64,000 nt of DNA from Candidatus Magasanikiibacteriota bacterium (GCA_026396515.1 JAPLWQ010000003.1:99569-163568); one strand, 5' to 3'. Shown: positions 5,840 through 48,912, counted from the first letter of the stretch. Numbers and translations: made by a program. Notes: generated by a model from the sequence alone, not told the origin.

Positions 5840-7324
5840 ATGACTTTTAAAAGATTTGTAAAAATTTCATTTCTGACGATTCTCGCCCTGCTTGTCGCCG
5901 GCGGTACTTTTATATTTTTTTGGTATCGCTCCGGCGGTCTTCAGCAAACTGTAATTCAAAAAATCGGCAAGCAATTTTTGTCTATTGATGAAAATACGCC
6001 CCCGGAAAACGGACAGACGTCCATTGACGGGGCAGCCGCCACTAATTTTGTACAAGAATTTTTTGGCTTGAGGGAGCCGCAGACATATTTGATAATGTTT
6101 TTGAACAATACCGAACTTCGGCCCGGCGGAGGCTTCATCGGAACATACGCAGTGGTGACTATGGATAAGGCCAATCCGAATATTGCAAAAGTTGAGGGCA
6201 CGGAAGTTCTTGATAATTTAGCGCCAAAGAATTTTCCTTCTGAGCCGCCGGCGCCGATCCGCGAATATCTTGGGCTGGACCGCTGGTATTTCCGCGATTC
6301 AAATTGGTCGCCGGATTTTAAAATATCGGCCGCCAAATCTCTTGACCTTTATCGCAAAGAAAATGGCGTTTTGGCAGACGATATAGATGCCGTCATCGGG
6401 TTTACTCCCACGCTGGTTGAAGATTTACTGCGCATTTCCGGTCCGGTCACGGTAAACGAAGTGGAGTTTACCGCGGATAATTTTACCGAGAAATTGGAAT
6501 ATGAGGTGGAGTACGGATTTGCCAAGAAAAATGTTCCTTTTGAACAGCGTAAAAAAATGCTGGCCGATTTGGCAAAAACAGTGATCATAAGCACAGCCAA
6601 AAACGCATTTTTGCATTGGGGAGAATATAAGGATCTGGTGGAAAAAATGCTGGCGGAAAAACAGATGATGGTTTATTCGCCCAATCAGGATTTTCAGAAA
6701 ATTTTTGAGAGCAAAAATTGGGCCGGTGAAATGTCCGGTGTAAGCTATGACTATTTAATGTGGGTTGATGCCAATCTTGGCGCGCTTAAAACCGACTGGG
6801 CGATTGAGCGGGAATTGACCTATGGGCTCAACCAGATAAGCGACGGACGTTATGTGGCAAAAGCAAAAATGACTTTTAATCATCGTGGTAAATTTGACTG
6901 GCGCACCACCAGATATCGTGACTACGCCCGCGTTTATGTGCCGGTGGGCAGTAAATTAATCAGAGTGAACGGTTCTATGAAATCGGATAAAAGTTCGGAC
7001 CCCGGTGTTGTTGACCAGGGTATAGAAAATGGCCGTCAATGGTTCGGTGCTTTTATCTCTATTGAACCTGGACGCACCGGAGAGCTGTCCTTTGAATACT
7101 TTGTGTCGCCGGAAGTGGTGCAACGGCTTAAAGCCAATGACTATCGTCTGTTTGTTCAAAAACAACTCGGCACGAATAATGTAAAATTATCGTTTCAATT
7201 AAATTTATCCAATATTTTGGCGTTTGCCTCTCCGGGAGAACCGTCCGGAAGACATGGTGACAATAAATATGAAAATAGCATGATTCTTAAAAAAGATATT
7301 GAATTGGAGGTTAGAACTAAATAA
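5840..7324 (+). CDS. Membrane-anchored extracytoplasmic protein (possibly DUF4012-like), hypothetical
   Basis: 494-aa ORF with an N-terminal TM anchor, adjacent to the GT2 gene. No catalytic motif was recognised. Confidence 0.45.
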   Translation: MTFKRFVKISFLTILALLVAGGTFIFFWYRSGGLQQTVIQKIGKQFLSIDENTPPENGQTSIDGAAATNFVQEFFGLREPQTYLIMFLNNTELRPGGGFIGTYAVVTMDKANPNIAKVEGTEVLDNLAPKNFPSEPPAPIREYLGLDRWYFRDSNWSPDFKISAAKSLDLYRKENGVLADDIDAVIGFTPTLVEDLLRISGPVTVNEVEFTADNFTEKLEYEVEYGFAKKNVPFEQRKKMLADLAKTVIISTAKNAFLHWGEYKDLVEKMLAEKQMMVYSPNQDFQKIFESKNWAGEMSGVSYDYLMWVDANLGALKTDWAIERELTYGLNQISDGRYVAKAKMTFNHRGKFDWRTTRYRDYARVYVPVGSKLIRVNGSMKSDKSSDPGVVDQGIENGRQWFGAFISIEPGRTGELSFEYFVSPEVVQRLKANDYRLFVQKQLGTNNVKLSFQLNLSNILAFASPGEPSGRHGDNKYENSMILKKDIELEVRTK

Positions 7325-7325
7325 T

Positions 7326-8333
7326 ATGTTTATAAAAAAAGTCGGAGTTGATCTCGGCACAAATAATGTTCGCGTTTATGTGCCGAAAAAAGGAGTAGTA
7401 ATTAATGAACCGTCGGTAGTGGCAATTTCCAAAAATGATGGAAAAATTTTGGCTGTCGGTTTGGAAGCGAAAGATATGCTGGGCCGCACTCCGGACTCAA
7501 TTTCCGCCGAGCATCCGCTTAAAGAAGGGGTGATTGCCAATTACAAAACCACTGAAGCGATGCTGCGGTATTTTATTAATAAAGCTTTGGGCGGCGTGCA
7601 CCTATTCAGGCCGGAAGTAATGGTGGCGGTTCCGAGCGGTATTACTTCAACCGAACGCCGCGCTGTGATAGATGCGACCATTGCCGCCGGTGCGCGTGCC
7701 GCATATCTGATTAAAGCTCCACTGGTTGCCGCCATCGGCGCGGATATTCCCATTGGTGCCGCGTCAGGACATATGGTGATTGATGTTGGCGGCGGTACAT
7801 CTGAGATTGCCGTGATATCGCTGGGCGGCATTGTCGCCAGCGGTTCAGTTCGCATTGGCGGAAATAAATTTGACCAAGCCATCGCCGAGTATATCAGAAG
7901 AAAGTATAACCTGGCCGTAGGCGTACACACGGCGGAAGAAATAAAAACCAGCGTCGGCTCGGCCATGTTTATGGGCAAGCCGTTAACCGCAGAAATTAAA
8001 GGGCAGGATATGGTTTCCGGATTGCCGCGAATTGTCACCGTTACTTCCGATGATGTCACTGAAGCGCTTCAACATGATTTAGAATTATTAATGAAAGCGA
8101 TTAAAGATGTTTTGCACGATACTCCACCTGAACTTTCTGCCGACGTGATGGACAAGGGGATAGTACTAACGGGCGGTTCAGCGCAACTTCGCCATCTGTC
8201 GGATTTAGTTACTGAAACAACCGGTGTGCCGACCTATGTGGCTGAAGATCCGTTGTTTTGTGCTGTAAAAGGTACGGGTACGGCTTTGGAAAATATTGAC
8301 AGCTACAAGAGAAGTATTTTAGCGACAAGATAA
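7326..8333 (+). CDS. mreB: Rod-shape determining protein MreB
   Basis: The MFIKKVGVDLGTNNVRVYV... actin-fold phosphate-1 motif and the DVGGGTSEIAVISLGG phosphate-2 motif are present. The ATG at 7326 follows the upstream stop, and the ORF track gives an alternative start at 7299. Confidence 0.9.
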   Translation: MFIKKVGVDLGTNNVRVYVPKKGVVINEPSVVAISKNDGKILAVGLEAKDMLGRTPDSISAEHPLKEGVIANYKTTEAMLRYFINKALGGVHLFRPEVMVAVPSGITSTERRAVIDATIAAGARAAYLIKAPLVAAIGADIPIGAASGHMVIDVGGGTSEIAVISLGGIVASGSVRIGGNKFDQAIAEYIRRKYNLAVGVHTAEEIKTSVGSAMFMGKPLTAEIKGQDMVSGLPRIVTVTSDDVTEALQHDLELLMKAIKDVLHDTPPELSADVMDKGIVLTGGSAQLRHLSDLVTETTGVPTYVAEDPLFCAVKGTGTALENIDSYKRSILATR

Positions 8334-8353: not shown

Positions 8354-10609
8354 ATGCCAGAAGGACCATTTATGCGCGTCGAAGATGTTAATTTTGGTGA
8401 AGTGCCGATGGAAGCGCCGATGGAAAATGGAAAGGAAAAAAAAGGTGAGTTTATTGATATCCGCAAAGAAGAAGTAAAAGTGCTTGGTGTTTCTTTGGAG
8501 CGAAATGCGGAAGCCGGGCCTCGCGTGCCTAAAGCGGACAAGTTTGCCGATTTTTCTGAAGATACTTTTTCACTGGATGTTCTTCAGAGAGTAGCAAAAT
8601 CCGTTTCGCTTGACCATCCGCTTTTGCTTGAAGGCGAGGCGGCGGCGGGCAAATCGTACACGATAGAATACTTGGCGCATCTATGCAATCAGGAAGTATA
8701 TAGAATGTCGCTCAACGGGCAAACCGATACCACGGATTTAATCGGTAAATGGGTGCCGCGCAGTGCCACACTGCGAAAAAGAATTGAAGATTTACTGAAG
8801 CATCCGGAAAAATGCCAGAGTGATGTTGTCAGAAGAATTATCGAATCACGCGTCGGTATCACAAGCGCTGAAAAAATGGGCATGAAAGAAATAGCGCCGG
8901 AAAAATTTGAAGAAGAAAATGCTAAGTTCGGCTTGAACAGAGAAGAAATGGAAATGGTCGCTACGCTGGAAGGGGTAGATGTACCGGAAGGTGATTGGGC
9001 GTGGCAAGACGGTGATATTCCAAAACAAATGGAATCAGGAGCGTGGTCCGTGCTCGATGAGGTTAATACTTGCGAGCCGCAAATTTTAGTCCGCCTGAAT
9101 GCTCTGCTTGAGAAAAATGGACAACTTGTTCTATCAGAAGACGGGTCGCGCGTAGTAAATCGCCACCCTGGTTTTCGTTTGTTTGCCACAGTCAACCCGC
9201 CGGGCGGCAGATATAAGGGGCGTATACCACTTTCTCAGGAATGGATTTCCCGGTGGAATTATCAGAATATCGGCGTTCTCCCGATGGAAATTAGAGCCAA
9301 GCGTTTAATGAAAGCTGCCGGTGTTGAAGCTGAACCGGTAAACATCAAAGACAAACTTCGGGTAATCAGGCCGGAAAAATCGGCTGGTGTTCCGGCGGTT
9401 GAAGGCAATCGCTTAGCCGATTATTATGAGCCGTCGTGGGTGAAAGATTTGTTTACCAAATACGGCGTATTCGCCGAGAAAGCCGCGCAAATGCTGGAAA
9501 GCGCCGAATTTGCAAAAGATCAGCTGCAAAAATTTGATGTTGATTCGCGCGATGATTGGCGATTTTTTGAGTATCTTAACCGTTTCCGCGAATCCGGCAA
9601 AATGACGCAGGTAATAAAAGAAGCTTTGGAATATTGCATTGTCAATAAATGCCAGAAAGAAATTGACCGCAAAAAATTACGCGACCTGATAGCCCTAATT
9701 AAGGTGTCGGAGCCAAAAGAAATTTTGAAAAATAGAACAGCAGAAAATCAGATGCACCTGCAAGCGGCAAAGAACAAAGCTCTTCGGCAAAGCATACCGG
9801 AGGGACATAGAAAAATCATAACCGGTGAGACGGAAAAAAATCCGATGATTTCGGCTGAAAATCCTGACGGAGAAACGATTATGATTGATATAGCCGATAC
9901 GATCAGAAGTTTTAAGGAGAATTTTAGGGATGGATACTTATTGCCCGAGTTTAGTGATGGTTTGCCGGACGAAATTAGCATGAGTGAAAAAGTGAAAAGT
10001 TTATGCCAGGATGTGATTGCCATGGGGCTAGACCAGGTAGCGGTTATGCCGGGTTTAAAAGTGCAGAATAAAGTTAAACGAAGCCGGTTGATGCAGAGTT
10101 TCGGTGAGCCGGTCACAAAAATTCTTACGCCTCTCGGTCTCGGAGACGGCGAAATGTATGGAGAAAAGCCGTTTATGGACCCCAAGTTTGGCAGTAAGGA
10201 GATACTTGTTCAGGAAAACCCTGACAATCCGTCTCGGAATAATTCTGATGGTTATTTAGTTTTTTATTCAAACAAGCCGTTGTTTAAACAGAGTAAAAAT
10301 CTCAACATCTCAGAAGCGAGAAAATATTTGTTTGAAATTGGCCAGTGCGGTTTAACAATGAACGATTATTTAGTGATTCAGCGTGCGGAGCTTGAGAAGA
10401 ACGGCGACCATCGGTTTGATACATTTTCAAAAAAGGCCGAAGATTCGCAGGAGACATATTTGGCAGATATGACGACAGGGGATGGTTCGGCGGTAAGCGC
10501 ACGATGGAACCCCAGAGACAAACGTATTGGTTTTTATGCCCACAAAGTCACGGAAAAAAATGAGGCTTGTGGAACGCTGGGCGTGGTAATAATACCGCTA
10601 AATACTTAA
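8354..10609 (+). CDS. Large AAA+ ATPase of the AAA_5/MoxR-CbbQ-like clade
   Basis: Walker A LLEGEAAAGKS, Walker B VLDEVN and sensor FATVNPP are present. The 751-aa protein has a ~420-aa C-terminal extension. Confidence 0.75.
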   Translation: MPEGPFMRVEDVNFGEVPMEAPMENGKEKKGEFIDIRKEEVKVLGVSLERNAEAGPRVPKADKFADFSEDTFSLDVLQRVAKSVSLDHPLLLEGEAAAGKSYTIEYLAHLCNQEVYRMSLNGQTDTTDLIGKWVPRSATLRKRIEDLLKHPEKCQSDVVRRIIESRVGITSAEKMGMKEIAPEKFEEENAKFGLNREEMEMVATLEGVDVPEGDWAWQDGDIPKQMESGAWSVLDEVNTCEPQILVRLNALLEKNGQLVLSEDGSRVVNRHPGFRLFATVNPPGGRYKGRIPLSQEWISRWNYQNIGVLPMEIRAKRLMKAAGVEAEPVNIKDKLRVIRPEKSAGVPAVEGNRLADYYEPSWVKDLFTKYGVFAEKAAQMLESAEFAKDQLQKFDVDSRDDWRFFEYLNRFRESGKMTQVIKEALEYCIVNKCQKEIDRKKLRDLIALIKVSEPKEILKNRTAENQMHLQAAKNKALRQSIPEGHRKIITGETEKNPMISAENPDGETIMIDIADTIRSFKENFRDGYLLPEFSDGLPDEISMSEKVKSLCQDVIAMGLDQVAVMPGLKVQNKVKRSRLMQSFGEPVTKILTPLGLGDGEMYGEKPFMDPKFGSKEILVQENPDNPSRNNSDGYLVFYSNKPLFKQSKNLNISEARKYLFEIGQCGLTMNDYLVIQRAELEKNGDHRFDTFSKKAEDSQETYLADMTTGDGSAVSARWNPRDKRIGFYAHKVTEKNEACGTLGVVIIPLNT

Positions 10610-10612
10610 ATT

Positions 10613-12625
10613 ATGGCCCGGTTTGTCGAGTCGTTTTCAGGCCGACAATTCAGCAAGTCAGATTCTTCCGATACTGGCGCTTCCGTAAATGAAGAAGCGG
10701 GTGTTGGTGTAAAAGAAATCGAAGAAACAAAGCCGGAGATAACCGCGGAAGAATATGCCGAGCGCGTGGAGCGTTTGCGGTCACTCGGCCGGGTAATTGG
10801 TTCTGATTTTGCCATGCGCGTGGAAGTCGGCAAAGAGCGCGGCTGGCGTTATAAATTCAAACCGGTGAATACAATTGAAGCCGATCCGGTAGATATTGCC
10901 GAAAAAAGCGTTGAATACTGTCTTGGCATTATAGCGCATGAGGGCGCGCACCGGGCTATATCCCGCACTGATTTTATTCCAAAAAAAGTCTGGCAAGAAA
11001 GCGGCTTTTCTTTTTTAATGAATGCGGTTGAAGATCCGAGAGTGAATAATTGGGTTGGTGAAAAATATGAAGGAGCGAAGGACTGGTTGAAGATGTCTTA
11101 TGATGAAGATATGGCGCCGGAAGATATGGTGGACAAACGAGCAAAAGAAAAGCTTGGTTACACGCCAAAGCACATTCGGTTTGGTCTGGAAATTATCAGG
11201 CGCTGGCACACCGGCGAGTTTTCTGCAGATGTGCCGGAAGATATACGGGAAGTACTGGATACCACGTTTAATTACGCCAAAGCCGCGTACAATTCATTGC
11301 CGGCGAGTAAAGCGGAAGAAAATGAAATAACCGACAAGGCGAAGATGGTCTACCGCATTGTTTATTCAAAGATTTGGCCGGAATACAAGAAGCTGGTTGA
11401 TAAATCAATTGATGAAGAAACATTACGCCAGATTTTGAAAGATATGATGGAAGGCGGGCAGATGGAGGGTGGTGAGCCGGGAGAGAAAGGGTCCGGCGAT
11501 GAATTAAGCGAAGAAATAAAAAAGAAAATTAAAGAAATACTTGACTCAATGACCGAAGAGGAAAAAAGGAAGTTGCTTGAAGGAGCGAAAGCGAAAGCGA
11601 AAGCAATACTCGATGAACTGGATACCGAGCTTGGAAAAGAGCTGCGCGGCCATATGGCTGATCAGCCTGAGACAAGTACTGAAGAGAGCAAGCGAATGGA
11701 GGCGGAAGACGCGGAAAGAAGAGCTCGTGCAAAAATTGAGGCGGAGGCCGGGGCACTTAGAGAACAGTTGGAACAGGCAAGGGAGAAAAATAAGAATGCT
11801 TATGACCGGGCTTTTGAGGAGGTAAAACCTTATATTGATAAGGTGGCTGAGGATATCATGAATATATTTATCGCCAAGAGGCATCCGCAGTTTAAGAAGA
11901 GCTTTCCCGGGCAAAAACTCCGCCTTAAGGGTGCTATGGCCTATGAATCAAGCGACAACTATCGTGATTTATTTGAACGGCGGTTGAATGCGGAAAGAAA
12001 AAGTTTATCGTTTTTTCTTTTGGTAGATTTGTCAGGCTCTATGTCAGGTGAAAAGATTGCCGAAACATTTAAAGGGGCCGTATTATTTGCTGAGGCGCTT
12101 AACAGAGTGAGTGAAACAATGGGCTCGGTTAAGGTCGCCATATATGGTTTTCAGGATACACTAATAAAATATAAAGAATTTGGCGAAAAAATGGATGATG
12201 ATTTGCGTCAGGCAATGAGCGTGATGCCGCGTGAAACGGAGAATCGCGGAGTACACAATGGCGCATCATACAATAGCGACGGATATTGTGTAGAAAAATC
12301 GGCCGAAATTTTAAATCAGCAACAAACAACCGGTAAGTTCTTGTTTGTCTTATCCGACGGCCAGCCTGCGCCCGACGGCGCACATCGTGCAGTCAAAGTA
12401 CAATATAATGAGTATGATCCCTCTGCCGAGCTTAGGGCAGTTGTTGCTCAAATATCCAAAGAAGGAAATATACACGTATTGGGCGTAGGCCTTGGCCCGC
12501 ATACCGAACATGTGAGTGATTATTATAGGTCGGATTTGGCACACGTAGATAATATTCCGAGTGTTGACGTAGACAAGCTGTCCCGGGTTCTCGGTGATAA
12601 ATTGGAACAATTGGTAATCAAATAA
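10613..12625 (+). CDS. vWA (MIDAS) domain protein with an HExxH motif and a K/E-rich coiled-coil linker
   Basis: The C-terminal LLVDLSGSMSGEK is a DxSxS MIDAS motif. GIIAHEGAHRAI is an HExxH motif. The gene lies 3 nt after the ATPase gene. Confidence 0.75.
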   Translation: MARFVESFSGRQFSKSDSSDTGASVNEEAGVGVKEIEETKPEITAEEYAERVERLRSLGRVIGSDFAMRVEVGKERGWRYKFKPVNTIEADPVDIAEKSVEYCLGIIAHEGAHRAISRTDFIPKKVWQESGFSFLMNAVEDPRVNNWVGEKYEGAKDWLKMSYDEDMAPEDMVDKRAKEKLGYTPKHIRFGLEIIRRWHTGEFSADVPEDIREVLDTTFNYAKAAYNSLPASKAEENEITDKAKMVYRIVYSKIWPEYKKLVDKSIDEETLRQILKDMMEGGQMEGGEPGEKGSGDELSEEIKKKIKEILDSMTEEEKRKLLEGAKAKAKAILDELDTELGKELRGHMADQPETSTEESKRMEAEDAERRARAKIEAEAGALREQLEQAREKNKNAYDRAFEEVKPYIDKVAEDIMNIFIAKRHPQFKKSFPGQKLRLKGAMAYESSDNYRDLFERRLNAERKSLSFFLLVDLSGSMSGEKIAETFKGAVLFAEALNRVSETMGSVKVAIYGFQDTLIKYKEFGEKMDDDLRQAMSVMPRETENRGVHNGASYNSDGYCVEKSAEILNQQQTTGKFLFVLSDGQPAPDGAHRAVKVQYNEYDPSAELRAVVAQISKEGNIHVLGVGLGPHTEHVSDYYRSDLAHVDNIPSVDVDKLSRVLGDKLEQLVIK

Positions 12626-12641
12626 TTATTAATAAATATTT

Positions 12642-13094
12642 ATGATATCAGAAAAAAATATTGCCAAGGTGAAGAAATTTATCGACGTTGTCTCTGATAT
12701 GCAATTTGGGCCGGGTAAGCAAATCGGTTTGTTGATATTGAAGAAGGAAGAGACGAAAGATATCAGTATTCTCGCGCCCAACAGCAATATTACGACTGTC
12801 CTGGAACTCTCTAAAGATGGCGACGCTGATGAGGTGATTGGATATTTAGCCGACGCAGTGAAAAGCGGCCGTCTTATTTTTATCCGGCTCCATGATTATC
12901 TTGACCCGAAAATATACAACCAGTTATTTCTCTTATCAAAGAATAGCCGGATGGAATATCCGAAGCTGGAAGAGAGAATTTTTGTGGACGCCGCCCCCGA
13001 AACAACGATAATTGTCATAACTACCGACAATGAACTGAATAAATTGAATTACACAAATATTCTCGATTTGTCCGGCTTGGTGGAGCGCCTCTAA
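12642..13094 (+). CDS. Hypothetical protein
   Basis: 150-aa ORF, co-directional and tightly spaced with its neighbours. Confidence 0.45.
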   Translation: MISEKNIAKVKKFIDVVSDMQFGPGKQIGLLILKKEETKDISILAPNSNITTVLELSKDGDADEVIGYLADAVKSGRLIFIRLHDYLDPKIYNQLFLLSKNSRMEYPKLEERIFVDAAPETTIIVITTDNELNKLNYTNILDLSGLVERL

Positions 13095-13098
13095 TAAT

Positions 13099-14214
13099 AT
13101 GACGATTGGCATTGAAGCATCGCACGCGAACAAAGATAAGCGAACCGGAGTTGACGAGTACTCATGGCAGATTATTAATCATCTTAAAAAAATCATTCCC
13201 GCCGAAGTGCGGGTGATTTTATATAGCCAGACGCCGCTCATCGGGGAACTCGCCGACTTGCCGCCGAACTGGCAATCGCGTGTTTTGCCCTGGCCATGGA
13301 AGCTATGGAGCCAAATTTGTCTGTCTCATGAACTTTGGCGGAATATGCCGGATGTATTTTTTGCTCCGGGACAATTGGTACCGGCGATTACGCCGAAAAA
13401 TACGGTGACCACCGTGCATGACAGCGCTTTTAAGGTTTACCCCAAAGCATACCGCTTTTTTAGCCGTTTATATTTGTGTCTGATGAATAAAATGGTACTA
13501 AGGAAATCCCGGATTATTTTGACTCCGTCCGACTTCAGTCGGCGCGAACTCAAACGTCTATATGATTTTGATACGAACCGCGTCTCGGTTACGCCACTCG
13601 GATATAACCGCGCTATTTACCGTAAGATACAAATAAATTTTGAAGAAAAGAATAAGGTGTTAAAAAATATTGGTATTACCAAGCCGTTTTTTATTTTTGT
13701 CGGCCGGCTTGAACAAAAAAAGAACGTGGCGAACATTGTCCGCGCATTTGATGTAATAAAAAAGCAGTATGATTGCGCGCTGGTAATGGTTGGTACGCCC
13801 GGCTGTGGTTACAAAGAAGTGGAAAAGACGATCGAGGAAAGTCAGAACAAAAGCGATATTATTTTGACCGGCTGGCTAGATTCAGAGACAGTCGCCAAGT
13901 TGTACAACCTGGCTGAAGCCATGATTTTTACCACTAATTATGAAGGGTTCGGTTTGCCGGCGCTTGAAGCAATGGCTTCGTGCTGTCCGGTTGTTGTTTC
14001 AAAAGGGAACAGCCTGGAAGAAGTGGTGGGCGATGCCGCCTTGGTAGCCGATCCGAAGTCTCCGGATGATATCGCATCCGCCGCATTGTTGCTAATCTCA
14101 AATCGTGATTTGCGAAACAGTAAAATTTTGGCCGGTATGGCCAGAACAGAGCTATTTTCCTGGGAAAACACAGCTAAACTTACTTGGCAGGCCTTGCGGG
14201 AAGCGGGGATATAA
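13099..14214 (+). CDS. GT4-family glycosyltransferase
   Basis: The FVGRLEQKKN...EGFGLPALEAMASCCPVVVS block is an E-x7-E-type GT-B C-terminal domain. Confidence 0.8.
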   Translation: MTIGIEASHANKDKRTGVDEYSWQIINHLKKIIPAEVRVILYSQTPLIGELADLPPNWQSRVLPWPWKLWSQICLSHELWRNMPDVFFAPGQLVPAITPKNTVTTVHDSAFKVYPKAYRFFSRLYLCLMNKMVLRKSRIILTPSDFSRRELKRLYDFDTNRVSVTPLGYNRAIYRKIQINFEEKNKVLKNIGITKPFFIFVGRLEQKKNVANIVRAFDVIKKQYDCALVMVGTPGCGYKEVEKTIEESQNKSDIILTGWLDSETVAKLYNLAEAMIFTTNYEGFGLPALEAMASCCPVVVSKGNSLEEVVGDAALVADPKSPDDIASAALLLISNRDLRNSKILAGMARTELFSWENTAKLTWQALREAGI

Positions 14215-22086: not shown

Positions 22087-22159
22087 GCCGTTGTAGCTCA
22101 GTTGGTAGAGCAACTCCATGGTAAGGAGTAGGTCCGCGGTTCAAATCCGCGCAACGGCT
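22087..22159 (+). tRNA. tRNA-Thr (anticodon GGT)
   Basis: Manual cloverleaf: acceptor GCCGTTG/CAACGGC, D-loop AGTTGGTA, anticodon loop ATGGTAA, T-loop TTCAAAT. Confidence 0.8.
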
Positions 22160-22188
22160 CTGGGTTTACAAATAGTATCGCCTTGTAC

Positions 22189-22261
22189 GCCACCTTAGCT
22201 CAGCTGGTAGAGCAACGGTTTTGTAAACCGTAGGTCGTCGGTCCGAGCCCGACAGGTGGCT
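22189..22261 (+). tRNA. tRNA-Thr (anticodon TGT)
   Basis: Manual cloverleaf: acceptor GCCACCT/AGGTGGC, anticodon loop TTTGTAA. Confidence 0.8.
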
Positions 22262-22277
22262 CGCAGATCATTTAATC

Positions 22278-22359
22278 GGATGGGTTCCCGAGCGGTCAAA
22301 GGGGACAGACTGTAAATCTGTTGGCTCCGCCTTCGAAGGTTCGAATCCTTCCCCATCCA
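22278..22359 (+). tRNA. tRNA-Tyr (anticodon GTA) with a long variable arm
   Basis: Acceptor GGATGGG/CCCATCC, anticodon stem ACAGA/TCTGT, loop CTGTAAA, a 13-nt variable arm and T-arm GAAGG-TTCGAAT-CCTTC. Confidence 0.8.
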
Positions 22360-22386
22360 CATTGTAAATTAATAATATTGAAAAAT

Positions 22387-22551
22387 ATGTCGTCCAAAGA
22401 AAGAGAAAACATGATAAAGATGGAGTGTTCTGAATGTAAGCGCGTTAATTACTTCAGCAGAAAGAATAAAAAACTTCTGAAGAACCGCTTGGAGATAAAG
22501 AAATACTGCCGTCACTGCAAAAAGCACTTGGCACACAAGGAAACAAAGTAA
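22387..22551 (+). CDS. rpmG: 50S ribosomal protein L33
   Basis: [54 protein letters not shown] carries the L33 CxxC...CxxC zinc ribbon. The ORF-track extension back to 22321 would run through tRNA-Tyr. Confidence 0.85.
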
Positions 22552-22555
22552 TTTT

Positions 22556-22584
22556 AAGGGCAGGACTCTTGTCCTGCCTTTTAA
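22556..22584 (+). terminator. Intrinsic terminator after rpmG
   Basis: Hairpin AAGGGCAGGAC-TCTT-GTCCTGCCTT followed by TT. Confidence 0.55.
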
Positions 22585-22588
22585 ACAC

Positions 22589-22626
22589 GGGGGGGTTCGT
22601 ATAGTGGTAGTATTATGGTCTCCAAA
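22589..22626 (+). pseudogene. tRNA-like 5' fragment (Trp-like anticodon loop, no matching 3' half)
   Basis: GGGGGGTTCGTATAGTGGTAGTATTATGGTCTCCAAA has a classic D-loop AGTGGTAG. It shares GGTCTCCAAA with the tRNA-Trp 0.5 kb downstream. No complementary acceptor or anticodon 3' strands were found. Confidence 0.3.
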
Positions 22627-22668
22627 TTGCCTTGTTATTGGAGGAATGATGACGTATAATATAGACAT

Positions 22669-23112
22669 ATGGAAAGTAACATATGTCTAAAATGTCACAA
22701 GAGCAAGCTGATATCCGAATTCAGTATTAGAGATAAGGAATCAAGGCGTTTTCATAGCCTCTGCAAAGATTGCCATTCAAAATATAGGCGAGAGCACTAT
22801 TTGCGGAATAGAGAGAAATATTTAGTTAAGGCAAAACGATGGAACAAGAAACAGACGTTTTCTCTACGCGCATTTATCTTCGACTATCTCTCAAATCATC
22901 CATGTGTAGATTGTGGTTCGAAAGATGTTAGAGTTTTAGATTTCGACCATGAAAGAGATAAGAAAATGGGCATCGCTCAAATGATACGAAATTGTCATTC
23001 ATTGTCATCGGTAGAAAAAGAAATTAAAAAATGCAGAGTAAGATGTGCTAATTGCCATAGAATAAAAACATTTTCACGAGGAAATTTTTGGAAAAATAAA
23101 ATGGGTCCGTAG
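22669..23112 (+). CDS. HNH endonuclease with an N-terminal CxxC/CxxC zinc finger (homing-endonuclease-like)
   Basis: CVDCGSKDVRVLDFDHERDKK...CANCH is an HNH core. The stop codon lies inside the 5' end of tRNA-Trp. Confidence 0.7.
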   Translation: MESNICLKCHKSKLISEFSIRDKESRRFHSLCKDCHSKYRREHYLRNREKYLVKAKRWNKKQTFSLRAFIFDYLSNHPCVDCGSKDVRVLDFDHERDKKMGIAQMIRNCHSLSSVEKEIKKCRVRCANCHRIKTFSRGNFWKNKMGP

Positions 23113-23174
23113 TTTCAATGGTAAAACATCGGTCTCCAAAACCGAGGTTCCCCGTTCGAATCGGGGCGGGCCTG
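23103..23174 (+). tRNA. tRNA-Trp (anticodon CCA)
   Basis: Acceptor GGGTCCG/CGGGCCT (two G-U pairs), anticodon stem TCGGT/ACCGA, loop CTCCAAA, T-arm CCCCG-TTCGAAT-CGGGG. Confidence 0.8.
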
Positions 23175-42268: not shown

Positions 42269-45200
42269 ATGCCTTTGGATAATCGAATCATCGATAATCA
42301 GAATAGCAACAATTTATACCGCGCGATATCAGAAGCCATTGGAGATGACACCCAAGGCATAGATATTGAAGTTGGATATTTTTATCTTTGCGGATTTGAA
42401 CTTTTATCAAAAAAACTTGATAAAATTAAAGTGCGAATCCTGGTTGGTTCTTATATTGATCCAGAAGCCATACCGACTTTAATAATGGAATCGATGAAAA
42501 AAACATCGGTAAATTTAGATCCGTTCCAACCCAGAAGTGTTCCGACTTCAAAACAGGAAAGAGTCAGAGCTCTTGGAGAAGGTATCAAGAAACTTGCAAA
42601 CCAAACATCAATATTTGACGCACCGGAATCTCAGGAATCATACTCAATTCTCGAAAGAAAACTCGAAGATGGTTCCCTTGAGATTAAAATGACCGAAACG
42701 CAAGCGCATGGAAAATGTTATGTAATCCATAATAAAAATGCCGGCAAAGTCTTTATGGGGTCGAGTAATTTTACTTATAATGGCCTAGTTGGACAGCAGG
42801 AAATAAACGAAACATTTGATACGGAAGAAAAATATAAGGAATATTCGAATAAATTTTCCGAGCGATGGGCCGATGCGCGCAATATCGTCATTCAAGAAAA
42901 AGGTAAATCAGACATGTTTTTGAGAAAATTTAAAGATGAACTTTGGATGAATGTGGTGCCGACTCCGTATCTTATGTATGTCCGGCTCCTTAATGAGATA
43001 TTTGGCGCTGAATACGAAGTTGATGTAACTAGCGCATCACAGGCTACACGAGGACAGTATTTGAACCTTTCATATCAGATGGATGCAGTAAAGATGGCAA
43101 TTGAAAGACTGAAAAATTATGATGGCGCTATCATAGCGGATGTTGTCGGTCTCGGGAAAAGTATTATAGCCACTACTATTGCTGTAAATTGTCCTGATTT
43201 AAAAACGATAATTATTGCCCCTCCGCATCTTGTTCCGATGTGGGAAGATTATGCCGAAGAGTTTAAACTTCGAGGGCCAAAGGTTTTTAGTGCTGGTAAA
43301 ATTGATGAGGTTTATGATAAATATAAAAATTCTACGGAGCCTATATTATTTATTCTCGATGAAGCGCATAGGTATAGAAATGAAGACACGCAAGACTATC
43401 AGTTGCTCCATCAGTTGACCCGCAGTAACGGTGAAAATAAGGTTTTAATACTATCAGCGACGCCCTTTAATAATGACCCGAGCGATATTTTTGCTTTGAT
43501 TAAACTTTTTCAAACTCCTGGCGCCGCCACACTTCGAACCGTAGAAAATTTATCAGCGAAGTTTGCAGATCTTGCGAATAGATATAAAACGCTTCGAAGA
43601 TTTCAAGCAAACGGTGCCATAACCACGGAACAGCGCAAAGAATTAGATAATAAACGCGATGCCATCGCCTCTGAGCTTCGACGATTACTTGAGCCTATTA
43701 TAATTAGACGTTCGAGGATAGACCTTGAAAAAATTACTCGTTACCGAGATGATTTGAAGGCTCAGAAAATTGAATTTTCAAAGATGAATGACCCAATTAT
43801 TCGGGAGTATAAATTAGGTAATTTCACTGACCTATATTTAGAAACCATAAACAAAATTGTGCCGGAAAAGAAAATTGTCGGCGGTTTAACCGGCGCACGA
43901 TACATGCCTACGACCTATGCTTTAGATATTGTAGATTTTACTAAAAAGTATCCGGATTTTGAAGATATTAGAACGGCTCAAATGAACGTAGCTTCCTTTA
44001 TGAGAAAACTTTTGGTAATGCGTTTTGAAAGTTCAAGAGCCGCATTCCAAAGTACTCTTCAAAAATTTATCGATTCACATCAAAGAATTCTCGATTGGGT
44101 AGAAAAAAAACAATTAGTACCAATTTCCAAGAAAGCCTATATTCCATCACCGGATGAGATGCCGGAAGAAGATGCGGAGGAAATTAATTCGGAAGAACAT
44201 GCAGAATTCGCAAACACTGAAGTCGCAAATAATAAAAAGATTGTTTTTGTTAAACTTGAGGATCTCAATGAAAAATTTGTACCTGAGCTTAAACATGATA
44301 TCAGCGTACTTACAGATATTTACGAAAAATGGTTTGGTTCGCAATCGCCGTTTTTATCGATGCCGGACCCCAAATTAAAACAACTCACTTTAGACATTCA
44401 AGAACGTCTAGCCAACGATCCGAATCGGAAAATTGTTATTTTTAGTATGTACGCAGATACAGTTGTTTATATAGGTGAAGAGCTCAAAAACGCTGGTATC
44501 CCAACCTTTGTATATACTGCTCAAAACAGCAATAGCGATCGCAAAATAATCAGAGAGAATTTTGACGCCGGAATCCCAACCGATAAACAGTCCGATGATT
44601 TCAGGGTTCTTGTTGCAACCGATGCTTTGAGCGAGGGTGTCAATCTGAATAGGGCAGGACGAGTTATTAATTATGATATTCCATATAATCCAACACGAGT
44701 CATACAGCGGGTAGGCCGGATAAACCGAATAGATAAAAAAATGTTTAAGGAGCTTTTTATTGATAACTATTTTCCTACCGAACATGGCGAGAAGGAAGTC
44801 AATATCAGGGGTGTGTCAACTTTAAAGATGCAGATATTTAATTCCGTGGTAGGTAATGATTCGCGCACCCTTACAGAAGATGAAACTCCGGAATCTTTTT
44901 TCATTGACGAATTTAGAAAGGCGACAACCGAAGAAGAGAGTTGGGATACTGTACACCGAGAAGCATACGAGCAAGCAAAACGAAATATACAAACAATGGA
45001 ATTAGCAAAAAAGATTCCGATGAGAGCGCGCATTGTGAGAACAAATAAGCCAGTTCAATTGGGGGTGGGGGTTGGTATTCGAGGGCAAAATAAAATATAT
45101 GCGCTCGAAACTAATGGACGGGCTGAGTTGGTTGATGCAGAAAAAGTATTAAATCATTTTGCTGCGAAACAGGACGAAGTTAGCGAGAAAGCCGATGACC

Positions 45201-45556
45201 AATTCGGGTTGGTTTTTGCCATATTGAAGGAAAAACTTTTTGAAAAGCCGCCCATGGGGCAAATGTCGAGAAACCGAACAGAGGTCGTGCGCATATTACG
45301 AAGTATTCGAGAAACTCAATATCAAAATTACCGCGATGATTTAATGAAAGTTGTCAGCGATCTTGACGACCTTTCAGAGGGGCAACTCAAAGCAATAATT
45401 AAGTTAGCAAAGAAGACTGATTTGTCTGAAGACCGATTAGTCGAAGCTATTATCGAAATAGCGCCGGAACAGCAGGTAAAGGTGAGCTTGGATAGACAAA
45501 ATAATGAAGCAAAATCGGCAAATCTTCTATTATTTACGCAAGAGCACCGCATATGA
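42269..45556 (+). CDS. PLD(HKD)-nuclease domain fused to an SNF2-family helicase
   Basis: The N-terminus has an HKD-like AHGKCYVIHNKNAGKVFMGSSNFT. The helicase has motifs I LGKS, II LDEAHRYRN, III LILSATPFNN and VI QRVGRINR. Confidence 0.8.
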   Translation: MPLDNRIIDNQNSNNLYRAISEAIGDDTQGIDIEVGYFYLCGFELLSKKLDKIKVRILVGSYIDPEAIPTLIMESMKKTSVNLDPFQPRSVPTSKQERVRALGEGIKKLANQTSIFDAPESQESYSILERKLEDGSLEIKMTETQAHGKCYVIHNKNAGKVFMGSSNFTYNGLVGQQEINETFDTEEKYKEYSNKFSERWADARNIVIQEKGKSDMFLRKFKDELWMNVVPTPYLMYVRLLNEIFGAEYEVDVTSASQATRGQYLNLSYQMDAVKMAIERLKNYDGAIIADVVGLGKSIIATTIAVNCPDLKTIIIAPPHLVPMWEDYAEEFKLRGPKVFSAGKIDEVYDKYKNSTEPILFILDEAHRYRNEDTQDYQLLHQLTRSNGENKVLILSATPFNNDPSDIFALIKLFQTPGAATLRTVENLSAKFADLANRYKTLRRFQANGAITTEQRKELDNKRDAIASELRRLLEPIIIRRSRIDLEKITRYRDDLKAQKIEFSKMNDPIIREYKLGNFTDLYLETINKIVPEKKIVGGLTGARYMPTTYALDIVDFTKKYPDFEDIRTAQMNVASFMRKLLVMRFESSRAAFQSTLQKFIDSHQRILDWVEKKQLVPISKKAYIPSPDEMPEEDAEEINSEEHAEFANTEVANNKKIVFVKLEDLNEKFVPELKHDISVLTDIYEKWFGSQSPFLSMPDPKLKQLTLDIQERLANDPNRKIVIFSMYADTVVYIGEELKNAGIPTFVYTAQNSNSDRKIIRENFDAGIPTDKQSDDFRVLVATDALSEGVNLNRAGRVINYDIPYNPTRVIQRVGRINRIDKKMFKELFIDNYFPTEHGEKEVNIRGVSTLKMQIFNSVVGNDSRTLTEDETPESFFIDEFRKATTEEESWDTVHREAYEQAKRNIQTMELAKKIPMRARIVRTNKPVQLGVGVGIRGQNKIYALETNGRAELVDAEKVLNHFAAKQDEVSEKADDQFGLVFAILKEKLFEKPPMGQMSRNRTEVVRILRSIRETQYQNYRDDLMKVVSDLDDLSEGQLKAIIKLAKKTDLSEDRLVEAIIEIAPEQQVKVSLDRQNNEAKSANLLLFTQEHRI

Positions 45557-48500
45557 TAAATCCTATTTTTTCAAATAAATATAACGAAGAAACATTTGCT
45601 GAATTTATACAAGGTATTATTCCGAGTCTTTCTTTAGATAAAAAACGAGCTGAGGTTCGCACCGGTTTCAAATCAATCCAACAAATTGCAGAAGCCAGTG
45701 AAAATAAACTCGATTTAGTCGTTTTTGTAGCCCAGCTAGATTCATCGCTTCATGCTCGTGTCGAAATTACAAAGAATACTTATGCCGTGCTCAAAAGTCA
45801 TGCTAGGTCTAATGCTTTGGTTGCCTATATTTCAGATGATTCTTCGGAATGGCGCCTCTCTCTCATCACCACCAAGGTTGCGAGGACAAAAGACGGAACA
45901 AAAGAATCAATATCAAACCCACGTCGTTTTTCTTATGTTTTGGGACCAAATGCAAAAGTGGCGACGCCTTCAAATATGCTACGAGGAACCATCGACTCAA
46001 TTATTGATCTGGAAAATAAGTTTTCTTTGGCGGTAGTTAGTAAGGAATTCTTTACTCAGATAGCGACACAATATTCTAAGCTTGTTGGAGGAACACGAGG
46101 AGAGGGACGAAAGGCAATGGTTTTTGAAAGGACGCTTAAGCTCGGAGATACAAATGATGCCGTCAATGCAAATTTTGCCATTCGTCTTATCGGTAGGTTA
46201 GTCTTTTGTTGGTTTCTGAAACAGAAAAAAGGACATCTAGGTAGTCCGCTCATACCGTCTGAGATACTATCTGTTTCTGCTGTAAAAACAATTGGCGATT
46301 ATTATCATTCAGTTTGTGTCCCACTTTTTTTCGAGGTTTTGAATAAACCACAACCCTCTCGACCAACAATTTTTTCTTATTCAGAATTATTCGATCAAGT
46401 TCCTTTTCTAAATGGTGGATTATTCCAAGACCATACAGAAGACAACCATAAATTTAATCGCGCTACCGGAATGAGCGAGCGGCGCGGTGTGGTTATTGTG
46501 CCCGACATTTGGTTTTCTGAATTGTTTCAAGTTTTTGAGGAATACAATTTTACAATTGATGAAAATACTTCGATAGATACGGAACTCTCGATTGATCCGG
46601 AAATGTTGGGTCGAATTTTTGAAAATCTTTTGGCGGAGGTGAACCCGGAAACTGGTGCCAGCGCACGGAAATCAACCGGAAGCTTCTATACCCCTCGTGA
46701 GATTGTTGACTTTATGGTAGAAGAATCACTTATTGCTCATCTCAAAACAAAAACCAATATATCCGAAGAAAAGCTACGGGCTCTTTCGTCTTACGATTTG
46801 GACGATGACACATCTCATCCAATTGATCAGCAAGAACAAAAACTGCTTGTTGAGGCTATACATAATACAACGGTTCTAGATCCCGCCTGTGGTTCCGGCG
46901 CTTTCCCGATCGGCGTTCTTCAGAGATTGGTGCACATGCTTGGCGTTCTTGATCCGGAATGTTCGATTTATTTGAGCAGGATTCCACCTGAAATGCGCAG
47001 GCAACTTCAAAAACATAGCCTTACATATGTCAGAAAACTCGGCGTAATTCGAGAGTGCATACACGGGGTGGATATACAGCCTGTTGCTATAGATATTTCT
47101 CGCTTAAGATGTTTTCTGACACTTGTCGTTGACCAACAAGTTGACGACGATGCCCCAAACAGGGGTATTGAGCCATTGCCAAACTTAGATTTTAAATTTG
47201 TTTGTGCCAACACGCTTATAAAACCGCCGGTCCATGAAGGCCCGCTATTCGGCGATGAATTTGCAGATGCATTAGGAGAACTTATTGACGAATATTTTGC
47301 GCCGGTCGATCAGTTGCACAAATTGGAGACAGCACGAAAATTACAACAGTTGATAAGCGAAAAAACAAACAAAGAACTCGAAAGCATCATTAAGTCATAT
47401 AGCTATCTGAAAGATGAAAAACATAAACAAGCGTTGGCTCAAATAAATGAAAAGTTAGATAGTGAAAGAATACGAATAAATTCACTCTGGAAAAGTTACG
47501 AAAATATCTTTCAAAATAAACCCGTTGGTTTTTTTGATACCAGATATTTTTTCCCCGTTGTATTTCGTGGCGGTGGTTTTGATATTGTGATAGGTAATCC
47601 GCCGTATGTTAGACAGGAAGAATTTTCAGGTATTAAGCCAGTTCTAAAAGAACAATACGGTGATTTTTTTAATGGACGTGCTGATCTATATACATACTTC
47701 ATCGCAAGAGGGACGACACTACTAAAAGAACGAGGAATTTTATCTTTTATAACATCAAATAAGTTTTTTGTTCGGGGTTATGGTGAAAACACAAGAGCAT
47801 TGCTTACAAAAGATATATCATTAAAAAAAGTGGTGAACTTCGGTGAGCTTCCTGTTTTTCAAGCATCTGTAGATTCAGCGATTGTGCTAGCGGAAAACAC
47901 AAAACCAAAAGAAAAAGACTCGCTTGATTTTGCTCAAGCAAAGACAGGGGCTGATATTAAAAACATCCATGAATTTTTTGAAACAAAAAAAGGAACTATA
48001 AAATTAACTTCTTTGGGATCGGGGGTATGGTCATTGCAGGATCCCGAAAAGTTAACAGTTTTAAATAAAATAAAGAGTCAAAAGAATACACTCGGGGCAT
48101 ATTACGATGGTAATATTTTTGCTGGACTTAAAACTGGGTTAGACGGCGTCTACGTAATCACAAGAAGCTTTCGGGACAAGTTGATTAATGCTGATAAAAA
48201 ATATGAAGTAGTTATTAAACCCTGGCTTAGAGGAAAAGATGTAAAAAAATGGAATCCTAACTTCCATGATTTGTGGGTAATAAATCTACGTTCTTCCTCG
48301 AACTTTACGTGGCCCTGGTCCGGGATGAGTAATGTTGTGGCTGAAACGATATTTCAATCGCAGTATCCTATTTTATATGACTATTTAATTCAGCACAAAA
48401 AAAAGATTTCAAAAAGAAGTGATCAGGGCGATTACTGGTGGGAACTGAGGTCTTGTGCTTACGATGACAAATTCAATACAAGAAAAATCATATATCCTGA

Positions 48501-48912
48501 CTGTGCAAAAGAGATGAGGGCCACATATGATGAAACGGGGCTATACGGAACACTTGCTATGTACATAGTGAGCTACGACCCCATAATTATGGGAATATTA
48601 AATAGTAAGCTTTTCGATTGGTATTCAAGAATGACATTTGCAACATTTGGCGATCCATGGAATGGTGGGAGAATAATTTTCAAAACAATTTATATGTCAA
48701 AAGTCCCAGTGCCTGATACTAAAAATAATACCGGTGTATTGATTAAGGGTGGTGTTGATAAAATTTTGGCAATTACCAAATCGAGCGATTATTTAGAAAA
48801 TTCTGCAAAAAAAGCAGAAGTCAAAAAATACGAAGAACAAATTGACAAGCTAGTTTATGAACTCTACGATCTGAAACCGGAAGAAATCGAAATTGTAGAA
48901 AATTTGAAATAA
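45553..48912 (+). CDS. MmeI/Eco57I/PglX/DrmMI-like gamma-class N6-adenine MTase, possible single-chain Type IIG/L RM enzyme
   Basis: Motif I is LDPACGSGAFP and motif IV is GNPPYV. The ~300-aa N-terminal domain contains D-x8-ExK (AQLDSSLHARVEITK). It overlaps the upstream gene by 4 nt (ATGA). Confidence 0.75.
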   Translation: MINPIFSNKYNEETFAEFIQGIIPSLSLDKKRAEVRTGFKSIQQIAEASENKLDLVVFVAQLDSSLHARVEITKNTYAVLKSHARSNALVAYISDDSSEWRLSLITTKVARTKDGTKESISNPRRFSYVLGPNAKVATPSNMLRGTIDSIIDLENKFSLAVVSKEFFTQIATQYSKLVGGTRGEGRKAMVFERTLKLGDTNDAVNANFAIRLIGRLVFCWFLKQKKGHLGSPLIPSEILSVSAVKTIGDYYHSVCVPLFFEVLNKPQPSRPTIFSYSELFDQVPFLNGGLFQDHTEDNHKFNRATGMSERRGVVIVPDIWFSELFQVFEEYNFTIDENTSIDTELSIDPEMLGRIFENLLAEVNPETGASARKSTGSFYTPREIVDFMVEESLIAHLKTKTNISEEKLRALSSYDLDDDTSHPIDQQEQKLLVEAIHNTTVLDPACGSGAFPIGVLQRLVHMLGVLDPECSIYLSRIPPEMRRQLQKHSLTYVRKLGVIRECIHGVDIQPVAIDISRLRCFLTLVVDQQVDDDAPNRGIEPLPNLDFKFVCANTLIKPPVHEGPLFGDEFADALGELIDEYFAPVDQLHKLETARKLQQLISEKTNKELESIIKSYSYLKDEKHKQALAQINEKLDSERIRINSLWKSYENIFQNKPVGFFDTRYFFPVVFRGGGFDIVIGNPPYVRQEEFSGIKPVLKEQYGDFFNGRADLYTYFIARGTTLLKERGILSFITSNKFFVRGYGENTRALLTKDISLKKVVNFGELPVFQASVDSAIVLAENTKPKEKDSLDFAQAKTGADIKNIHEFFETKKGTIKLTSLGSGVWSLQDPEKLTVLNKIKSQKNTLGAYYDGNIFAGLKTGLDGVYVITRSFRDKLINADKKYEVVIKPWLRGKDVKKWNPNFHDLWVINLRSSSNFTWPWSGMSNVVAETIFQSQYPILYDYLIQHKKKISKRSDQGDYWWELRSCAYDDKFNTRKIIYPDCAKEMRATYDETGLYGTLAMYIVSYDPIIMGILNSKLFDWYSRMTFATFGDPWNGGRIIFKTIYMSKVPVPDTKNNTGVLIKGGVDKILAITKSSDYLENSAKKAEVKKYEEQIDKLVYELYDLKPEEIEIVENLK

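Follow-up and report, generated by a model that had tools for sequence, protein, structure and literature searches.

Introduction

Diversity-generating retroelements (DGRs) are unusually abundant in the bacteria that make up the Candidate Phyla Radiation (CPR). The commonest target of these elements in CPR genomes, as stated by Doré et al. 2024 with reference to Paul et al., is a fusion of an AAA ATPase with a domain that carries the label CLec (PMC10907252). Wu et al. 2018 reported that one CPR target class, UVR4, matches a Midasin domain, UVR4 itself being left unclassified (PMC5758913), and according to Roux et al. 2021 recognisable domains are usually absent from CPR DGR targets. In the vWA-MoxR ternary systems described by Kaur et al. 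2020, the vWA component is fused to an FGS/CLec domain that is diversified by a DGR (PMC7159879). For the CobSTN complex, a preprint describes the N-domain of CobT as made up of one helix, a sheet of three strands and eight helices, resembling peptidase M48C, which docks on the small domain of the ATPase CobS; it is followed by a disordered linker of about 90 residues, a pair of pre-vWA helices called the "shaft", and a vWA domain with a MIDAS (metal ion-dependent adhesion site) (bioRxiv 10.64898/2026.07.21.739949). Here, we analyze a locus in a 64 kb stretch of Candidatus Magasanikiibacteriota DNA (the window; Patescibacteria/CPR, GCA_026396515.1 JAPLWQ010000003.1:99569-163568), in which three co-directional genes on the plus strand encode a 751-amino acid AAA_5 ATPase that has a tail domain at its C-terminus (gene A, 8354–10609), a 670-amino acid CobT-type adaptor formed by a zincin-like N-domain, a charged linker and a vWA domain (gene B, 10613–12625), and a 150-amino acid stand-alone core that we read as a degenerate AAA+ domain (gene C, 12642–13094). 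We think that the locus is probably a copy, devoid of DGR, of a three-gene CobST/Midasin-like module of Patescibacteria that comprises a motor, a CobT-type adaptor bearing a zincin motif, and a dead AAA+ core.

The source genome belongs to Candidatus Magasanikbacteria, within the Patescibacteria/CPR, and a protein identical to protein B is on record for a metagenome-assembled genome of this group. Genes A and B were delimited as open reading frames (ORFs), with the additional aid of Pfam and homologues for the first and of the family profile against the PDB for the second, while gene C was defined by locus linkage, HHalign, an AlphaFold (AF2) model and Foldseek. The many homologues found, 211 for protein A and 108 for protein B, indicate that both genes are real. 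The original prediction for this DNA had described two co-directional ORFs of 751 and 670 amino acids separated by 3 nucleotides (nt), and this is correct; the pair, however, is not the whole unit, since the third co-directional gene, which begins 16 nt past gene B, had been overlooked.

A CobT-Type Adaptor with a Zincin Motif

When the family profile of full-length protein B was compared with the PDB, CobT was matched over linker, shaft and vWA domain with E = 1.2e-30, followed by the MIDAS domain of Midasin (1.9e-16) and NorD (2.5e-7). The vWA domain (11825–12622), identified from Pfam and from conserved columns, matches the vWA family CobT_C with E = 5.4e-10 and its MIDAS is complete: D472, S474 and S476, within the DLSGS stretch of residues 472–476 (12026–12040), together with N554 and D582, fall in columns conserved at 90% or more and have D422, S424, S426, N518 and D546 as counterparts in CobT. 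The region before this domain, residues ~266–400 (11408–11812, delimited by composition and by alignment to CobT and Midasin), is a linker with 47% of K/E/D/R, which aligns to the CobT linker plus pre-vWA helices and to the region that precedes the Midasin MIDAS domain. A long K/E-rich coiled coil had been proposed for this part of the protein; its charged character is real, but the stretch corresponds to the disordered linker and the pre-vWA helices of CobT. Neither is the architecture oversized or novel for a vWA protein, as had been suggested, but that of a full-length protein of CobT type: the solved CobT has 637 amino acids and the solved NorD proteins 638–646.

The N-domain comprises residues 40–290 (10730–11482), as delimited by an AF2 model, conserved columns and Foldseek. 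It contains an HExxH motif (HEGAH, residues 109–113, 10937–10951) and a second motif of near-invariant columns, N137-x2-E140-D141-P-R-x-N145 (11021–11047). Of the 108 homologues, 106 have HExxH in the corresponding place, down to 25% identity, which indicates that the zincin motif is under clear purifying selection; the two exceptions are P0090, a protein of 400 amino acids truncated at its N-terminus, and P0105, from which the motif is missing. In an alignment of 42 sequences, E110 and H113 are invariant, and H109, E140, D141 and the N137–N145 block are conserved at 90% or more. The family thus shows the sequence signature of a gluzincin-like zincin, a helix-borne HExxH and, further on, a conserved acidic residue as putative third ligand. 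The earlier proposal of a second protein that joins a MIDAS vWA domain (DLSGSMSG) to an HEGAH motif is therefore sustained, with both motifs at the residues given above, and the check that it recommended, conservation of HExxH in orthologs, comes out in its favor, so that an objection based on loss of the motif fails.

The AF2 model of the N-domain has a predicted local distance difference test score (pLDDT) of 88.5 and a predicted template modeling score (pTM) of 0.82. It is ordered as a helix, a three-stranded sheet, the HExxH helix, the helix with the N/E/D block and further helices, about nine following the sheet, and its topology agrees with the one given for the N-domain of CobT in the preprint. 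Foldseek comparison of this model with BFVD retrieved the N-terminal parts of phage CobT/vWA proteins (top E = 4e-5, probability 1.0, 274 columns), and the only PDB matches of appreciable probability were the minigluzincins jannalysin and selecase. Moreover, projannalysin was the second-best match of the N-domain sequence profile (E = 0.05), with the HExxH helix aligned. The genuine CobT of S. meliloti, encoded beside cobS, lacks HExxH and retains DAVEQARVE where the protein B family has NAVEDPRVN; the motif is absent as well from the CobT of Pseudomonas phage nickie. Comparison of the N-domain profile with the N-terminus of S. meliloti CobT was not significant (E = 0.13), though its register is sensible, and for this reason the homology of the N-domain to that of CobT rests on structure and architecture. 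It is well supported that protein B is a CobT-type adaptor which keeps a zincin motif that characterised CobTs have lost, and this suggests that the M48C-like N-domain of CobT descended from an active zincin. In phage nickie itself, cobT and cobS (L085, 2723–6124) have a gene for DNA ligase on one side and dnaE on the other, in the replication module, and are not accompanied by cobN.

The AAA_5 Motor

Protein A matches Pfam AAA_5 with E = 1.5e-15 and 57.9 bits (cut-off 22). Its AAA+ core spans residues ~75–300 (8576–9253), as judged from the conservation of motifs and the alignment to Midasin, and includes the Walker A motif GEAAAGKS (residues 94–101, 8633–8656), the Walker B residues D235 and E236 within VLDEVN, and the sensor-1 residue N281 within FATVNP. 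The assignment of these three motifs to an AAA_5 ATPase, made in the original prediction, agrees both with the Pfam match and with their conservation. Among 119 homologues, K100 is kept in 99%, and D235, E236, N281, R290 and R300 are each kept in 100%. As the catalytic residues are essentially invariant over these homologues, we consider protein A an active motor, and its sequence identifies it as a presumably catalytically competent member of the AAA_5/MoxR clade (helix-2-insert). Between Walker A and Walker B there is an insert of ~70 residues (~135–210). In a phmmer comparison with the PDB all six AAA modules of Midasin match, the alignment with AAA4 spanning the insert, and after them come CobS (3e-10), CbbQ (7e-6) and NorQ (4e-5). 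At the level of sequence it is thus well supported that the nearest characterised relatives are CobS, with its partner CobT, and Midasin, instead of the RavA/ViaA or CbbQ/CbbO pairs that had been put forward for comparison. Protein A is not CobS itself, because it scores 36.2 bits with the NCBIfam CobS model TIGR01650, far under the cut-off of 558.55.

Past the AAA core, residues ~301–490 (9254–9823, according to the BLAST coverage of orthologues) constitute a helical region that is common to all orthologues. By its position, it may correspond to the lid plus extra helices, with a docking role like that of the small domain of CobS. The core conserved among orthologues comprises residues ~19–490, the BLAST coverage stopping at query positions ~455–494, and most orthologues are only 460–490 amino acids long, so that the last ~260 residues of protein A form a separable tail. 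What had been perceived as a single C-terminal extension of ~420 amino acids exists, but it consists of two parts: the shared helical region, ~300–490, and the separate tail, 491–751.

The Tail Domain and Its Relation to DGRs

The tail domain (residues 491–751, 9824–10606) matches no Pfam family and was recognised by BLASTP from its similarity to the tail of the ATPase of a related locus, L040 (3e-15 over 255 amino acids). It belongs to the same subtype as the tails of loci L036 and L037, both of which are DGR-diversified. In many orthologues of protein A this part is missing or of different form, and the tail common to 11 close orthologues is unrelated to that of the window by HHalign or HMMER. 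Long-tailed ATPases are the norm in the commoner of the two subfamilies described below.

Related loci were counted in a set of 80 taken from species-representative genomes, and in about 30 of them bAvd and reverse transcriptase families recur, their identities being confirmed by Pfam. In ~26 loci, with Avd and reverse transcriptase adjacent, the final 105–125 nt of the ATPase gene, or variable region (VR), match a template repeat (TR) located just upstream of avd, and the mismatches between both fall almost only on TR adenines (16/16 in L002, 19/19 in L029, 17/17 in L041 and in L054, 17/18 in L036 and 9/10 in L006). This adenine specificity identifies the 3' end of the ATPase gene as a DGR target in these ~26 relatives. 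In the locus sequences used, a DGR was found at 23 of 49 tail-bearing loci, at 8 of 15 when only those with at least 2.5 kb of flank available on both sides are taken, and at one of nine tail-less loci. Besides, many loci contain free-standing paralogues of the tail domain, of 325–390 amino acids, at L002 11264–12301, L006 8446–9618 and L035 10640–11701, and three in L010 (1425–2402, 6848–7825 and 9232–10209). Most of them have their own VR matching the same TR, which implies that one DGR serves two or three targets.

In gene A, tail alignments locate the segment equivalent to the variable region in the last ~40 codons (10487–10606), and the terminal motif G-F-R of the relatives has degenerated there to G-V-V. 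Judging from the sequence comparisons, the tail of the window ATPase can be regarded as a homologue of the C-terminal domain that DGRs diversify in related ATPases, and it looks either fixed or served by a DGR placed elsewhere in the genome.

A Presumably Dead AAA+ Core

In the neighborhoods of the homologues, a gene of ~135–150 codons accompanies the ATPase–vWA pair even where the order of the genes differs, and gene C is present in 50 of the 58 loci with a full ATPase. The small proteins of both subfamilies are homologous (HHalign 97.6%, 4e-12). The AF2 model of protein C, with a pLDDT of 93, matches the AAA+ alpha/beta core of RuvB, ClpC1, MCM, NorQ, CbbQ, dynein and BchI in the PDB by Foldseek (probability 1.0, TM ~0.65). 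Neither protein C nor the family consensus has the GK[ST] of a P-loop after strand 1, and both have HD at the position of the Walker B DE. A profile alignment, weak but in register, places LHDYLDPKIYNQL of protein C over LDEVNxxEPQILVRL of the ATPase. From sequence and model together, protein C is read as a stand-alone, catalytically dead AAA+ subunit. One candidate relative, P0249 (924 amino acids), was discarded, as it is an Ig-repeat protein matched via a repeated short motif.

Distribution and Mode of Action

The three-gene module is widespread in the Patescibacteria, which are tiny symbiotic bacteria, and it was found in at least 204 species-level genomes. The window-type subfamily has the order ATPase–vWA–small, and a commoner subfamily, ~30% identical to the window type, has the order vWA–small–ATPase. 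Single metagenome-assembled genomes (MAGs) carry both subfamilies, L005 and L015 in JAHIUG01 and L027 and L070 in JBAXGH01, and this suggests that paralogous systems coexist in one genome; the vWA proteins of L005 and L015 are 56% and 33% identical to that of the window. Locus L023 has two full-length tail-bearing ATPase genes (8465–10519 and 11032–13218) in tandem after one vWA gene. Distant relatives outside the CPR (L004 5078–9809, L076, L079 and L069, including a Myxococcota MAG and a Competibacteraceae MAG) combine an HExxH-vWA protein with ATPases of 920–1120 amino acids, which have an N-terminal extension of ~500–600 amino acids in place of the C-terminal tail. A viral collection of 2.9 million contigs yielded only three full-length HExxH-vWA relatives (L087, L088 and L089, from IMG/VR, 33–35% identity), which either come from phages or prophages of CPR bacteria that bear the module or represent CPR fragments wrongly classed as viral. 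The idea of a phage-borne module was rejected in view of these three cases as opposed to at least 204 species genomes.

The mode of action that we propose is drawn by analogy with the solved CobS-CobT complex. Protein A would assemble as a ring, the N-domain of protein B being docked on the helical small domain of A and its pre-vWA helices lying in the pore of the ring. Hydrolysis of ATP might then shift the vWA/MIDAS head, possibly gating the zincin site, and a bound client would be acted on. The tail on each subunit of A could provide specific recognition of a cytoplasmic ligand, programmable where there is a DGR and fixed in the window copy. Protein C, a regulatory and non-catalytic pseudo-subunit in this scheme, probably takes a place in the ring or caps it. 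None of the proteins A, B and C has membrane or secretion signals. Given that the machine would be cytoplasmic and that its recognition domain is diversified in relatives, recognition of foreign or host-derived molecules is likelier than service to one housekeeping client, and we think that this is probably the biological role. The proposal of a vWA-MoxR conflict system, made in the original prediction, gains from this comparison, since relatives are DGR targets and the link is reasonable; on the other hand, proteins A, B and C gave no match to the PADLOC defense models, and the bpMoxR model reached 17 bits in one relative, with a cut-off of 27.

Alternative Explanations

Several results weigh against our interpretation of the locus. 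No Pfam peptidase or zincin model matches the N-domain in 42 members of the family even at E <= 1, and Foldseek comparison of its model with the PDB gave no significant match (best E = 0.39). As this domain is a docking surface in genuine CobT, its HExxH could by analogy be a structural metal site. The sequence homology of protein C to protein A is weak (E = 0.007). The window tail compared directly with the general tail profile gives no significant match, and its subtype is connected to the general tail family in a transitive way via L040, with moderate strength (HHalign 81%, E = 1e-5); the tail profile matched no solved structure among PDB sequences, including no C-type lectin. In addition, the 64 kb of the window contain no reverse transcriptase, no Avd and, even with an adenine-permissive scan, no template repeat for the tail of gene A, so that the relevance of DGRs to this copy comes through homology only.

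It is accordingly possible, albeit not the option that we favor, that the HExxH domain is not a peptidase but a CobT-like docking element for ATPase and client, its motif being a structural metal site or an interface. In the solved CobST/CobSTN complexes the M48C-like N-domain binds the small domain of CobS and CobN, and the lack of any significant match to an active peptidase structure or Pfam peptidase model is in line with such a function. However, the CobT proteins of S. meliloti and phage nickie dock without HExxH, whereas in the protein B family H109, E110, H113 and E140/D141 are near-invariant down to 25% identity, and the glutamate that would act as general base is invariant, although a purely structural site does not need it.

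Another explanation is that the module is a housekeeping chaperone for assembly or metal insertion, of the CobST, NorQD, CbbQO or CoxDE type, that matures one conserved enzyme, with tail and HExxH as accessory features. We consider this unlikely, even if the closest characterised relatives are all chaperones of this kind, the presence in at least 204 species-level genomes, from organisms whose genomes are very small, suggests an important function, and about half of the tail-bearing copies have no adjacent DGR. Across the 80 loci there is no conserved client gene beside the module; hypermutation of the motor tail in roughly half of the relatives fits a variable ligand and not a fixed client; two paralogous modules occur in some genomes; and close orthologues have lost the tail or exchanged it for another.

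A bolder and rather doubtful extension of the reading that we prefer, the DGR-less copy of a CobST/Midasin-like module, is that of a programmable AAA+ protease or remodeler. The motor tail would capture a cytoplasmic protein of a phage, host or competitor, the ring would pull it via the CobT-like shaft, and the zincin would cleave the target or free an effector. If true, this would amount to adaptive, antibody-like targeting built on FtsH-like chemistry split over three proteins, in which the pseudo-AAA subunit sets the asymmetry of the ring and the window copy represents a hard-wired specificity kept after loss of the retroelement.

The genomic context bears on the two remaining proposals. 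The module is flanked by mreB (7299–8333) and by a GT4 glycosyltransferase gene (13099–14214), with gaps of 4–20 nt, and a scan for promoters and terminators gave sites no more numerous than in shuffled sequence. Related loci have other neighbors, such as hydrogenase/HypA (L001), infB-rbfA and rpsP-trmD (L002), or urease and HSP90 (L004). An envelope or cell-shape remodeling factor tied to mreB and the glycosyltransferase, which had been offered at the outset on the strength of this adjacency, appears very improbable and is unsupported because the adjacency is not conserved: all the related loci examined have different neighbors, neither mreB nor any GT family turns up repeatedly in the 80 loci, tight packing of genes is normal in CPR genomes, and the proteins have no signals that would direct them to the membrane or outside the cell. 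A genuine aerobic cobaltochelatase CobS/CobT pair can be practically discounted, in spite of the Pfam CobT_C match, of NCBIfam CobS as best named match and of a PHROG match to "porphyrin biosynthesis", since no CobN-sized gene exists in the window (where, apart from the locus, large ORFs are limited to those of a PLD-helicase and an Eco57I-type methylase) or recurs in the 80 loci, and besides the NCBIfam CobS score is 36 bits for a cut-off of 558, the ATPase, which bears a tail, is twice as large as CobS, and the adaptor has an HExxH that is missing in CobT.

Other Features of the Window

Two overlapping large genes occupy positions 42269–48912, in an island of low GC content (0.35–0.41, compared with ~0.45 elsewhere). 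One encodes a PLD-nuclease plus SNF2/DEAD helicase of 1095 amino acids and the other an N6 methylase of Eco57I type, 1119 amino acids long, which includes a TaqI_C specificity domain; the region looks like an acquired restriction/defense island. Four tRNA genes are clustered at 22087–23174, and between the third and the fourth there is an ORF (22669–23112) for a Cys-rich protein of 147 amino acids with a CxxC/HNH-like pattern.

Comparison with Known Systems

NorQ/NorD and CbbQ/CbbO consist of an AAA_5 hexamer and one vWA adaptor, by which a client is remodeled, a combination that this locus would share, but their similarity to it is much weaker and here there is no client gene. The vWA-MoxR ternary systems (PMC7159879; PMC10907252) also combine a MoxR-clade ATPase, a vWA protein and a third component, have a DGR-diversified lectin-type sensor, and commonly include peptidase domains. 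Their variable domain, however, is on the vWA protein, whereas in the relatives of our locus it is on the ATPase and the vWA protein carries the peptidase-like domain; their third component is VMAP, iSTAND or a beta-propeller instead of a dead AAA core; and their hosts are multicellular bacteria, not ultra-small CPR bacteria. The CPR "AAA ATPase-CLec" DGR targets belong to the same ATPase family, and in ~26 related loci the ATPase ends in the VR of an Avd-TR-RT cassette (RT, reverse transcriptase), the difference being that the window copy has neither DGR nor TR.

CobS/CobT (CobSTN; PDB 9uj*/9uk*) provides the best solved match of protein B and is second only to Midasin for the ATPase. In both cases an AAA_5 ATPase gene is adjacent to one for a protein of ~630–670 amino acids with M48-like domain, linker, pre-vWA helices and MIDAS. 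The module described here differs in that there is neither CobN nor a cobalamin pathway, in the ~70-residue insert, the longer helical region and the 260-amino acid tail of the ATPase, in the HExxH...E of the adaptor, of which CobT has none, and in the extra pseudo-AAA gene. In the literature surveyed, which did not extend to Paul et al. 2017, we found no description of a zincin-vWA adaptor or of a pseudo-AAA partner. The adaptor with an intact zincin motif and the pseudo-AAA subunit thus appear to be undescribed, while the ATPase family is already known as a CPR DGR target.

We think that this association is of value because the AAA ATPase whose C-terminal domain is variable, the most frequent target of DGRs in CPR bacteria, previously lacked a functional context, CPR targets being described in the papers surveyed as devoid of recognisable partner domains. 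Placing it with a CobT-type MIDAS adaptor that bears a peptidase-like metal motif and with a dead AAA+ subunit turns it into a concrete, testable machine, for which the solved CobS-CobT complex can be used as structural template of the engagement between motor and adaptor. To our knowledge, Midasin has no zincin domain. Midasin/Rea1, the eukaryotic AAA+ protein of ribosome assembly, follows the same plan of AAA_5, acidic linker and MIDAS, but it has six AAA modules, some of them inactive, and the MIDAS in one polypeptide, whereas here a single active AAA, a dead AAA and a vWA protein are separate. In the module one can therefore see the plan of Midasin in split, prokaryotic form, with its AAA_5, acidic linker, MIDAS, and AAA units both active and inactive, within a deep lineage of bacteria.

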